A DNA stretch of 40,207 nt from Enterobacteria phage CUS-3: the sequence record CP000711. The stretch is one strand, 5' to 3'. Below are positions 6,001-9,000 of the stretch, one piece after another. The position numbers were made by a program. How positions within the stretch are numbered: the stretch's first letter is position 1; every line of letters starts with the position of its first letter.

Positions 6001-9000
6001 GGTGATCATCGCCTTAGCCTGTTTTTCTTTTGGCAGAGACTGACCGCGACTCATGACGAGTTGTTTAATGGCTTCCTGCTGTTCAGTGGTGATTTTACCC
6101 TGCAACGCCTTTTTAGCTTTGCGTGGGTTAACTACATGGCCTTTAGTCCAGTACTCGTAGAGCACATCGTCACACTCTTCCTGATACTGGATTACCTTGT
6201 CGCGGATTTCAGGGCGGACTTTGTTAGGACTGATGCTGTTCAACCAAGCTGCCAATTTTCGTAAAGCCATACAAATCATGGCTTGCACCCCACCGGCAGA
6301 AGGTATGGTGATTTCCACCATACCATTCGAGAATCGTTGAGAAATCTTCTTATGTTGAGATTTCCAGTCTAGCCCCATTCCCTCAACGATAGGTTTCATT
6401 GGGGTATACGGTTCGCCGTTGTGATTGACAACATAAAGCTCTGCGCCGTGGAATGGTACATTGATAGTAGATACTGCTGTTGCTATACTTTTCATGTCGT
6501 TAATTCCTATGCGTGGTTTTACGATACCGAAGCCCTGACTGTTCCCGCAGTTGGGGCTTCAACTTTCTGCTCTATCAGTTATATCTTTCCCTTCGTATAC
6601 TTCACCTATATTGCTAATGCTGGCAGAACATCCAAGATGCTTGTATCTTATGATGTCCAACACGCAGTCACTACACAGCATCCGACCTGTTTCTTTAGAG
6701 TAAATGTATGTTTGATCAGCGTCTGATTCGCTAATGCCGCAGAAACAACATTCTTTACTCATACCATCACCCCCTCTCTCTTCAAGCTGTCCAGCACCCG
6801 TTTAATTACTTCTGCGCTAAACGATCGACACTCTTCCTTTGCTTTCTCTTCAAGGATTTTTTCTAACTTCTCTGGCATACGCAGTGTTTTTACCTTCATT
6901 GCATCCTCCGCTGTATGTGGTACGCATACATAGTATTTAGGTACGCATTGATAGTCAATAGACACCTACATATCCTGTGGTAAAAAATTATTCAGGGTGT
7001 GCCGATGTCTGATCGTAAGTACAAAAACCCTCAAGTGAATCTGAGGCTTCCTGTAGAGATAAAGGAACGTCTTATTGAACTGGCTGAGGCTAATTCTCGT
7101 TCATTAAATGCTGAGATGGTCGCTGCACTTGAAGCATGGACCGAAAAAAATAAACACATTCAAGCACTAGACCTTGCAACTATAGCATCACGATTGATAG
7201 ATCTTGAACATGATGTTGAGAAGTTGAAATGCATGTATGGCAACAATAAAGACGAAAGTTAGAGATACTAACTTGGAGTGATGGCATGGCTAGAGATGAT
7301 CCGCACTTTAACTTCCGTATGCCTTTGGAAGTAAGAGAAAAATTGAAATTAAGAGCCGAGGCTAACGGAAGGTCAATGAACTCTGAGTTATTACAAATCG
7401 TTCAGGATGCGCTATCAAAACCATCACCGATTGCAGGTTACCGTGACGAAGCAGAACGTATGGCTGATCAGCAAGCAGAAATTGTTAAGAAGATGGTGTT
7501 TGAAACCCTGAAAAAAATGTACGAGACCAGATAGGTCAATGTTTGTTCGTTGATATAAAATAACAAGGTATACATTGTGATTGAGATAGGCGTTATGGCC
7601 ATCCTGAATCAAGAGCCAGGAAAAATTGAAAACGTTTTTTCTGACATATCAACATCTATCGAGCGTTCAATTTCAGACTTTGATCGCAGTCATAGCGGCT
7701 CTTTGTCTAAAAAACAGGCTTCTGAAGCTCTTAGCAAGATCTACTGCGTTATGTCACCTGTAGAGGAAGTTTGCAAAAAGTACATTACATTCATTGACAT
7801 ATTAAGTAATGGTACAGAAGAAGATATTTCCTCACTTAATATTCAACATGACGATGTAGATATGTTGAACGATCAGATATCTAAGCTTGATTATGGTATC
7901 GCGAAACTGTTGTATACCTTCTTCATCGCTGAGAACAGCGATGCGTGGAAGCCCCATATGTCAACTCTTACAACAATGAAAAACCACTCAATCAATACTT
8001 TTATAGAATACAAAAGGCTAACAATGGGGCTTGTGACGCTAGCAATGCAGCACATACCACTATCATATGCTGAACCTGAAGAGTTCACTGAAGAAGAGTT
8101 GGCTTCCTTCAAGAAATCAGTTGAAGATTCACATAAAAGATTTGGCATGGAAGCACCAAAATGGAAAACCGCATAAGCATTGTTGTAGATGCAGCGGCTG
8201 GACCATTAGAACAATACTTTGCGAAGGCTCTTGCAAACTACAAAAACAGAGGCACCGTTTCAGCTTATCTTGGTAAGATTGGTGGGTTTGAGAGAAACCA
8301 TCACGCCGTCTTATCGGGAATTTACAAGTCGCACATCAGGATCCCTGGAGTAGATGATCCTTGGTTAAGAACAACGCCAATACATCGTAGAGTTAGCGAT
8401 AACTTTTTGATATTTGCGGTACACAACACATATCCAATTCATATCCAGATCATTGCTATCATTAAACCTGATGGTCATGAGAAGGTAAAAAAACTATTGC
8501 CAGCCATCATTGATATAACTGAAAAAAGATTCCAATCTCTAAATGAGAGGGAGCTTAACTCGTTGATTTCATACAAATAAAATATCAACTAAGGGGGTTG
8601 GTGTGTATACAACAGTTATCGCGATAGCTATCGCACTCATTGTGGTTCAGTACCAACTGGCATCTTTAAAACAAAAGATATCTGACCTCAAGACTGAGAA
8701 CGAAGCACTTAAAAACTCAATAAAAGATGAGAAGAACAAACTATCATTCACTATATCTGATATTGAGCAATCCATTGAAATTATTGAGAATAATATTAAC
8801 AGATTAAAAAAAGAAGATATTCATGAAATCAATGACAATATCAAGGATTTGAAATCTTGGCTTAGGAATGTAGGACAAATCGCCACATCAACACGAGATA
8901 AGCTCAATACATCCATGGATGATTAATTACTCCTGTGCCATTCCGCTTAGCGACGCTACAATGCCAGCCCTCGCTAAGCGATTGAACTCTTCGTTTCCAA

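Follow-up and report, generated by a model that had tools for sequence, protein, structure and literature searches.

What does an immI region gain when it carries one ribbon-helix-helix (RHH) repressor gene more than that of phage P22, and a small Cys-rich open reading frame (ORF) between arc and the antirepressor gene ant as well? The question is raised by Enterobacteria phage CUS-3, a P22-like (Lederbergvirus-type) prophage whose 40,207-nucleotide (nt) sequence, record CP000711, is the window analysed here and supplies all coordinates below. An earlier note, made from this sequence, had described the layout and suggested that it may indicate a more elaborate antirepressor control circuit. 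The layout is indeed present, with every feature listed there at or near the position given for it, but no evidence for such a circuit acting in cis was found. The account that we favour, with somewhat better than even confidence, is that of a mosaic 'ant moron' (immI) assembled by recombination from three parts: a switch of its own, built on arc and the adjacent RHH gene (hereafter RHH2); an orphan P22-type mnt; and a cargo gene, the Cys-rich ORF, here called X.

Genes were called with Pfam, Rfam and PHROG profiles and with the RefSeq (PGAP) annotation of Escherichia coli UTI89, in which the three RHH genes are annotated and X is not. Over 6540-8600, the span compared, the prophage of UTI89 and NU14 is 100% identical to the window, and the same identity is found in other extraintestinal pathogenic strains, for example IHE3034 and APEC O18.

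A repressor pair of predicted non-P22 specificity

The arc gene (6759-6899, minus strand) encodes a 46-residue Arc-family RHH repressor and is preceded by a GGAGGA Shine-Dalgarno sequence at 6904-6909; RHH2 (7005-7262, plus strand) encodes 85 residues, and the two diverge from a 105-nt intergenic region (6900-7004) with candidate promoters and operators. Both pass the Pfam Arc cut-off (PF03869; 20.4 bits), with 33.8 bits for arc and 40.1 for RHH2, as does the P22-type mnt (7286-7534, plus strand; 82 residues) with 96 bits. Mnt additionally matches Repressor_Mnt, the C-terminal tetramerisation domain (PF11423; 56.3 bits, cut-off 20.9 bits), a family that gives no match to RHH2, and phrog_795 is the best family for both proteins. 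The earlier note had placed RHH2 between the divergent arc and mnt genes, at 6999..7262. Its place there stands, but the start is more likely the ATG at 7005, which has an AGGGTG Shine-Dalgarno sequence and is used in UTI89 RefSeq (258 nt); the GTG at 6999, the start of the mechanical ORF, has none and was rejected.

The same pairing is found in Salmonella phage SEN22 (NC_028696), which has arc and a single divergent RHH gene and no second mnt. The N-terminal segment of Arc, MKVKTLRMPE, which forms the DNA-reading β-strand, is identical in the window and SEN22, the remainder of the protein having diverged, and RHH2 is 85% identical to the sole Mnt analogue of SEN22. Conservation is sharpest in the control core between the genes (6912-6976), where 62/65 positions (95%) agree, compared with 59.5% for the arc and 76% for the RHH2 coding sequence. 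This core is also present in three E. coli prophages, those of VTB96816v, an O104:H4 strain and PSJ-36, of which the second and third carry RHH2 and lack a P22-type mnt; RHH2 stands without a second mnt in many prophages. Identities to other repressors are lower, at 36% between the window and P22 Arc proteins, 45% between RHH2 and the Mnt-like protein known from phages L and ST64T and, over the full length, 32% between RHH2 and the P22-type Mnt encoded beside it. The BLASTP alignment of this last pair runs through residues 78/79 and includes a C-terminal LK.MY motif common to the two. On the strength of the SEN22-type pairing, the conserved core and this full-length alignment, RHH2 is best read as the cognate Mnt-type repressor of this immI allele and as a full-length Mnt paralogue, not as the extra gene for which the earlier note took it, and the immI regions of SEN22 and the window should have the same repressor specificity.

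A predicted β-strand of RHH2, PQVNLRLP (residues 9-16; window 7005-7050), has the Q-x-N-x-R pattern of the DNA-reading strand of P22 Arc, PQFNLRWP, and several ATAG(T/A) boxes lie in the arc-RHH2 intergenic region. To go by this pattern, RHH2 may read Arc-like half-sites while its C-terminus is Mnt-like.

Two divergent promoters are predicted in the control region, each matching 9/12 positions in a consensus scan. A Pant-like promoter (TTGACT-17-TACTAT; 6930-6958, minus strand), with its -35 box at 6958-6953 and its -10 box at 6935-6930, is conserved in five phages or prophages and would drive arc, X and ant. A Pmnt-like promoter (TTGATA-17-TATCCT; 6948-6976, plus strand), with its boxes at 6948-6953 and 6971-6976, would drive RHH2, mnt and the downstream cargo, and would leave a 21-nt leader that includes the RHH2 Shine-Dalgarno sequence. 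The palindrome between arc and RHH2 that had been proposed as an operator, ATTGATAGTCAAT (6947-6959), consists of the two overlapping divergent -35 boxes and forms the middle of a 31-bp dyad, TAGGT-N4-ATTGA-tag-TCAAT-N4-ACCTA (6938-6968, centre 6953), that is symmetric at 10/15 pairs, is identical to SEN22 at 29/31 positions and is a candidate operator for both promoters. An operator role for the palindrome thus stays plausible, alongside its service as -35 hexamers. Two 16-bp direct repeats, GGTACGCATACATAGT and GGTACGCATTGATAGT, lie 21 bp apart. A 19-bp imperfect palindrome, O1 (TGTATGTGGTACGCATACA; 6912-6930), adjoins the arc ribosome-binding site, overlaps the predicted Pant start, is identical at 19/19 positions in SEN22 and lies where the Mnt operator lies in P22 and Salmonella control regions. 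Neither the repeats nor the O1 motif occurs elsewhere in the window. The palindrome is judged real because of its conservation and position, not because of individual rarity.

We infer the pairing of repressors with these sites from P22. By that analogy, RHH2 would be the prophage maintenance repressor, binding O1 over the Pant start, and Arc, bound to the dyad and the direct repeats across the overlapping -35 boxes, would close the operon down once a burst of expression has passed. The candidate operators are unrelated to the Mnt and Arc operators of P22: the P22 Mnt operator, AGGTCCACGGTGGACCT, has no match in the 40-kb window at three or fewer mismatches, and the best 17-mer has five and lies inside unrelated coding DNA. 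Judged by these sites, the immI allele of the window has a different operator specificity from that of P22.

An orphan P22-type mnt

The third RHH gene is of another provenance. The P22-type Mnt is identical to P22 Mnt at 67/82 residues, and at 46/48 in the DNA-binding N-terminus, and its resemblance to P22 DNA sets in no more than about 20 nt ahead of the ATG, right after the RHH2 stop codon. At this junction (7263-7285, plus strand; homology onset near 7267) the leader and Shine-Dalgarno sequence of a P22-type mnt are joined to the RHH2 stop, leaving mnt 23 nt after RHH2. Because the homology starts so close to the ATG, mnt has lost its own promoter and both P22 operators. Recombination at this point would have removed the promoter, the Arc operator and the Mnt operator together and made mnt the second gene of the RHH2 operon. 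The canonical mnt, and not RHH2, is the added gene.

The junction, TAGAGATACTAACTTGGAGTGATGGCATG, is identical in 10/10 copies (the window, VTB96816v and eight IMG/VR contigs), which argues for a single origin of the tandem. In all ten, mnt is intact and encodes 82-84 residues. The copies comprise at least six alleles, which differ mainly in the C-terminal half and each have different cargo downstream; the N-terminal segment, including the DNA-binding β-strand, is conserved across them except for one M-to-I change in one allele. The ratio of non-synonymous to synonymous substitution rates (dN/dS) is 0.12 when the copy in the window is compared with that of VTB96816v. The RHH2-mnt tandem occurs in 45/5,426 complete E. 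coli genomes, and in 8/17 of the IMG/VR contigs that bear this arc/RHH2 type together with X.

A likely parent for the right arm of the window is the arrangement in APEC E19035 (O2:K1:H5), which has a P22-type arc and a control region of the canonical P22 form, the Arc and Mnt operators of P22 included. From mnt to the end of the yafO toxin gene it matches the window at 98.6% identity, and an orf107-like gene comes next. From this comparison the window is a recombinant, in which a SEN22-type block of X, arc, operators and RHH2 replaced the P22-type arc and control region and left mnt behind.

With no target in its own genome, the P22-type Mnt would, if active, repress the ant gene of superinfecting P22-type immI phages, and by acting in trans it would protect the lysogen from Ant-driven induction. 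The suggestion builds on the established biology of P22, in which, according to Susskind and Botstein, ant on a superinfecting phage is silenced by the Mnt of the resident prophage, and Ant that escapes repression induces prophages already in the cell. A P22-type Mnt that lacks an operator of its own could thus give cross-immunity against P22-type immI phages that share the host. The gene would also offer a homology anchor for exchange of the downstream cargo. Its conservation fits a retained function and fits equally a gene at a crossover site that is refreshed during cargo exchange. Our literature search found nothing on a tandem of a cognate and an operator-less Mnt, nor on dual-Mnt immunity.

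A second, independent tandem is seen in the insect symbiont Arsenophonus nasoniae (locus 2745-3582), where an arc-like gene diverges from an RHH2-like gene (59% identical) and a second Mnt-type gene, of the 611R6 type, follows 100 nt after the latter.

A cargo slot between arc and sar

On the arc side of the switch the predicted operon ends in ant (5572-6495, minus strand), whose 307-residue product contains P22_AR_N (1.1e-45; 155 bits) and P22_AR_C (5e-29; 100.7 bits), both above their cut-offs, and is named 'phage antirepressor Ant' in UTI89 RefSeq. Directly upstream lies an element absent from the earlier note, the antisense RNA sar (6497-6564, plus strand; Rfam RF00262, full length 1-68, 84.6 bits against a gathering threshold of 43). 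It is complementary to the ant leader and ribosome-binding site, and its 3' end overlaps the stop codon and last two sense codons of X. A Psar-like promoter (TTGATA-17-TATACT with TG; 6461-6489, plus strand) is predicted within the 5' end of ant by a 10/12 consensus match, at the position that the annotated sar promoter of P22 has relative to sar. Searched with Rfam at relaxed thresholds, 6300-7100 contains sar and no other RNA family. X itself (6559-6762, minus strand) fills the interval between arc and sar, and its start overlaps the arc stop through an ATGA at 6759-6762, as the earlier note had it.

Comparison of related loci defines this interval as a slot with conserved bounds and exchangeable content. 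One bound is the 3' end of arc, which encodes ...DSLKREG(I/V)(T/M)V; the other is the sar terminator hairpin, 97-100% conserved in P22, N7, 611R6, phiv205-1 and the Salmonella loci. E. coli prophages hold X here and Salmonella prophages a homologue of it, while unrelated ORFs take its place elsewhere: one of 57 residues (phrog_17642) in phiv205-1 and the O104:H4 prophage, one of 73 residues (phrog_11805) in vB_EcoP-611R6, and an 89-residue membrane/coiled-coil ORF in APEC E19035. In P22, N7, SEN22 and PSJ-36 the slot is empty. Every ORF in the slot overlaps the arc stop by 4 nt at its start. Since the content of the slot varies, and X travels with two arc/mnt specificities, X behaves as exchangeable cargo expressed with Ant and not as a fixed part of the switch. 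Nothing in the literature searched was found to define this slot, or an X family within it.

X also occurs in lambdoid prophages, within immI modules that have been inserted between the tail genes L and K. In O157:H7 strain JEONG-1266 and O145 strain RM12275-C1 (about 2560-4215), a whole immI module lies between L and K (C40 peptidase), with ant, the sar hairpin, a frameshifted X, arc and a 611R6-type Mnt analogue; the O157 module adjoins nleL, and arc is truncated in JEONG-1266. A different association is seen in Salmonella, where all six loci with the X homologue (about 2967-3503) have a 178-residue ClpP-family (PF00574) gene directly after mnt, with a 1-nt overlap, and a HicA/HicB-like pair lies near these mnt and ClpP-family genes. 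A ClpP-like gene and a ClpX-zinc-domain-like gene in one Salmonella ant moron make a curious pairing.

X, a small zinc-finger-type gene

The X protein begins MSKECCFCG and continues to an LCSDC motif, which gives candidate Cys ligands C5/C6, C8, C30 and C33 in a C4 pattern of the ClpX type (two CxxC pairs, about 18-21 residues apart; 21 in X). The gene has a strong Shine-Dalgarno sequence, GGGGGTGA, in addition to its coupled start. It matches phrog_7150, a family of unknown function, with E = 3.4e-50 over positions 1-67 of 67. The Salmonella homologue (68 residues; clusters P0014 and P0019) also matches phrog_7150 (5e-8) and is 25-30% identical to X in a MAFFT alignment and 35-37% in local alignments. 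It occupies the same slot, with the same 4-nt arc overlap, directly upstream of the sar hairpin and ant, and M1, E4, C5, C6, F7, C8, G9, C30 and C33 are invariant between the two forms. Because a homologue with these invariant residues sits in the same slot, the comparison settles that X is a real gene. Among 40 IMG/VR contigs, X is intact in 29; arc/mnt of two types accompany it, and its surroundings are podoviral in some cases and lambdoid in others.

Relatives beyond these are scarce. A tblastn search of X against 50,697 phage records returned nothing at E ≤ 1; word-indexed searches of 5.8 billion proteins, an alignment query included, returned only near-identical E. coli clusters and two Salmonella clusters; and in an exhaustive HMMER search of 1.84 billion representatives the sole true relative was P0014. 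TPR-repeat proteins, which dominated the HMMER output, were rejected as relatives, as they match the C-terminal 'SASISNIGEVYEGKD' in many stretches, which is judged a repeat-inflated artefact. The segment concerned, residues 41-65 (window 6559-6640; HLGCSASISNIGEVYEGKDITDRA), resembles one TPR_12-type helix, with HMMER E-values down to 2e-20; the tail is poorly conserved in the Salmonella form, and the likeness is probably artefactual.

The fold is modelled at low confidence. AlphaFold predictions from the single sequence and from a four-sequence alignment both reach a predicted local distance difference test (pLDDT) score of about 56, with a zinc knuckle, a β-hairpin and a helix (31-39) that starts at the second CxxC, followed by a tail of 27 residues predicted to be disordered. 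Foldseek searches against the PDB and viral models gave nothing significant, and PDB sequence searches gave weak half-matches to the RING domains of RNF4 and RNF31. Pfam zf-C4_ClpX (PF06689; cut-off 27 bits) does not match X and gives the Salmonella homologues 13.2 and 10.2 bits; hhalign against the N-terminus of E. coli ClpX gives P = 5.5e-4 at 30% probability. In UniRef, Salmonella P0019 is named 'ClpX-type ZB domain-containing', a name whose implied PROSITE match was not reproduced. X is filed, tentatively, as a single-zinc C4 finger of treble-clef type, as in RING, ZZ and the ClpX zinc-binding domain, and is predicted to bind zinc. The earlier label of 'zinc ribbon', which in the classical sense means two zinc knuckles, each on a β-hairpin, is only approximate; the low-confidence model gives the treble-clef arrangement. 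Likeness to the ClpX domain is a lead and not an established membership. A literature search for phage-encoded ClpX zinc-domain proteins found nothing relevant.

An in-frame Arc-X fusion of 112 residues is on record (Logan assembly P0001; window 6759-6775). It can be obtained by losing one GA unit of the (GA)n run just before the arc stop, and may be a natural variant or an assembly error.

Alternative explanations

The circuit envisaged by the earlier note would require Arc, RHH2 and the P22-type Mnt all to act in cis on one control region, with X regulating ant. None of the three RHH genes is disrupted, they are neighbours, and the two divergent promoters probably express them all. With O1, the 31-bp dyad and three repeats spaced by about 21 bp, the control region also has symmetry and repetition beyond what two repressors would strictly need; the ends of the dyad, TAGGT...ACCTA, moreover resemble those of the P22 Mnt operator. 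Yet the same control region goes with arc and RHH2 alone in SEN22 and many E. coli prophages, the P22-type operator is absent from the window, and the junction shows that mnt came by recombination with its regulatory DNA cut off. As for X, its slot is empty or filled by unrelated ORFs in loci with the same layout of ant, sar and arc. A three-repressor circuit is therefore quite unlikely. More weight attaches to the proposal that the P22-type mnt is a neutral hitch-hiker, a recent recombination scar and anchor for cargo swaps that regulates nothing in cis or in trans. It is suggested by the near-identity to the copy in the canonical APEC E19035 arrangement, by allele differences that fall mostly in the C-terminal half and go with different downstream genes, as at a crossover site, and by known orphan mnt-like genes that are suspected remnants (PMC8022706). 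What makes it doubtful is that the tandem copies are all intact despite their several alleles, with the N-terminal DNA-binding segment almost fully conserved and a low dN/dS; that the Shine-Dalgarno sequence has been kept, within an operon presumably expressed in the prophage; and that a target exists, since P22-type immI phages whose tailspike gene is equally long circulate in K1 strains.

Turning to X, the idea that it is a chance ORF in the arc-ant spacer draws on its missing RefSeq/PGAP annotation in UTI89, the empty tblastn search of phage records, the frameshift that it carries in most E. coli genomes with this DNA, and a polymorphism without synonymous excess. Against these stand the diverged Salmonella homologue, with the same slot, a coupled start and all four or five Cys residues invariant, the strong Shine-Dalgarno sequence and ATGA overlap, the entry in phrog_7150, and the intact copies in most of the viral contigs, across two immI types and two genomic contexts, which leave the idea very improbable. 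The frameshift is a one-base T insertion in a T-run at codons 7-8 in O157:H7 and O145 prophages, in some of which arc is truncated too. It was counted from 304 records at 95-99% identity, 23/23 sampled records showing the 205-nt match length that implies the insertion, and is read as later decay because intact copies exist in the same tail-gene context. A more specific proposal for X, that it is produced in a burst with Ant, mimics the N-terminal zinc-binding domain of ClpX, competes with host ClpX for the adaptors or substrates that bind there and transiently changes ClpXP proteolysis during infection, follows the ClpX lead and is unlikely. A wider scenario, which we regard as a tentative possibility, would combine two Mnt-type repressors from one operon, one silencing the phage's own ant and one acting purely in trans against superinfecting P22-type phages on the same K1 host, as a two-key 'anti-antirepressor' immunity against induction by a competitor; X would be a free-standing imitation of the ClpX N-domain and would adjust host ClpXP while Pant is active in its burst.

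The mosaic that we favour, in which X would be one resident of the arc-sar slot, a small protein that binds zinc and is expressed from Pant along with Arc and Ant, has points against it as well. Taken singly, none of the palindromes exceeds chance expectation: shuffling the 105-nt intergenic region yields a perfect 5-3-5 palindrome in 10% of cases and reaches the larger dyads in 8-13%. Promoter matches at the 9/12 level number 4 in the region where 6.0 would be expected, which is no enrichment. The left half of the dyad, TAGGTACGC, matches 7/9 bases of the P22 Mnt operator half-site, and on that resemblance the P22-type Mnt might bind its own control region weakly in cis. The copy of mnt in APEC E19035 stands in a working canonical context and the alleles look recombinant, so that intactness may reflect recent acquisition or repeated recombinational refreshment and not selection in the present setting. 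For X, the polymorphism amounts to 5 sites (2 synonymous, 3 non-synonymous) and is uninformative on selection. About 300 O157/O145 genomes carry the gene with its frameshift, so their degraded prophages can do without it.

Flanking genes

The immI region is flanked by the tailspike gene (2526-5471, minus strand) and a gene 16 homologue (8927-11086). Downstream of both mnt genes, and probably co-transcribed with them, lies cargo at 7577-8926, all on the plus strand: orf199 (7577-8176; phrog_18235) and orf107 (8603-8926; phrog_5962), from families without known function, and between them a YafO-family toxin gene (8161-8580; Pfam YafO_toxin, 3.2e-11), whose start orf199 overlaps by 16 nt. The orf199/YafO-family pair may be toxin-antitoxin or abortive-infection cargo, with a partner that is not a YafN-type antitoxin. 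Run on X, both Mnt-type proteins, the ClpP-like protein and the YafO-family toxin, PADLOC matched none of them to a defence system; for orf199 and orf107 its matches were weak and probably compositional. A plus-strand ORF at 6421-6726 was rejected, as it overlaps the ant start, sar and X and has no support. The tailspike (981 residues) has a P22-type head-binding N-terminus and a long C-terminal part, and presumably resembles the endosialidase tailspike of K1-specific phages; in the O2:K1 strain APEC E19035 the tailspike gene is equally long (2,946 nt).

Relation to known immI regions

The window has the structural features of P22 immI, to go by its gene content and order, except for the operator sequences. 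Shared are the place between a gene 16 homologue and the tailspike gene, the gene order and strands, the two Ant domains, a full-length sar, an Arc-family gene at the head of the ant operon, a divergent Mnt-family gene and palindromic candidate operators at corresponding places. Apart from the divergence of the repressors, the window differs in its promoters, which are predicted to overlap at their -35 boxes where those of P22 overlap almost completely, and in the addition of X between arc and sar and of a P22-type mnt downstream of the cognate repressor. SEN22, which shares the Arc N-terminus, RHH2 and the control core, has neither addition, and its ant is interrupted by a transposon. From the ClpX N-terminal C4 domain (PF06689; PDB 2ds5), X differs in being a free-standing protein of 67 residues without an AAA+ module, in a Cys-pair spacing of 21 residues against 18, in its predicted disordered tail, and in falling below every family threshold. 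The immI operon of P1 and P7 runs from the antisense RNA c4 through icd to ant, and so also has a small ORF upstream of an antisense-controlled antirepressor in one operon; X differs in ending before the sar target and in not being coupled to the ant start.

The orphan mnt has precedents in phages L, ST64T and ST104, which keep an mnt-like gene in an ant moron without a cognate ant operon (PMC8022706, PMC2629481); that of phage L has been discussed as having 'another function' or as a 'remnant' (PMC8022706). The window differs in that its orphan is a near-canonical P22-type Mnt beside a complete switch of other specificity. A survey of ant morons (Villafane et al. 2008, PMC2629481) described them as changing rapidly and distinguished ten types among sixteen genomes. 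That survey lists the UTI89-type moron with six predicted genes, which is also the number of larger genes in the immI region of the window, and states that CUS-3 apparently lacks arc (PMC2629481). The 46-residue arc and 67-residue X are small enough to have escaped gene prediction of that time; the prophage of the UTI89/NU14 type carries arc, and the statement on CUS-3 may merit re-checking.

P22 immI is a textbook genetic switch, and its two repressors serve as models of DNA-binding proteins. The locus does not alter the logic of immI as it is known; what it offers is a natural allele whose sequence points to a changed Arc/Mnt specificity and whose control region is sharply conserved. The slot between arc and sar is a conserved collecting place for small accessory genes, among them a predicted zinc-finger family missed by RefSeq in the E. 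coli genomes inspected. The orphan Mnt, if active, would be a natural case of cross-immunity against competing antirepressors, and would bear on warfare between prophages in ST95/K1 pathogenic E. coli.

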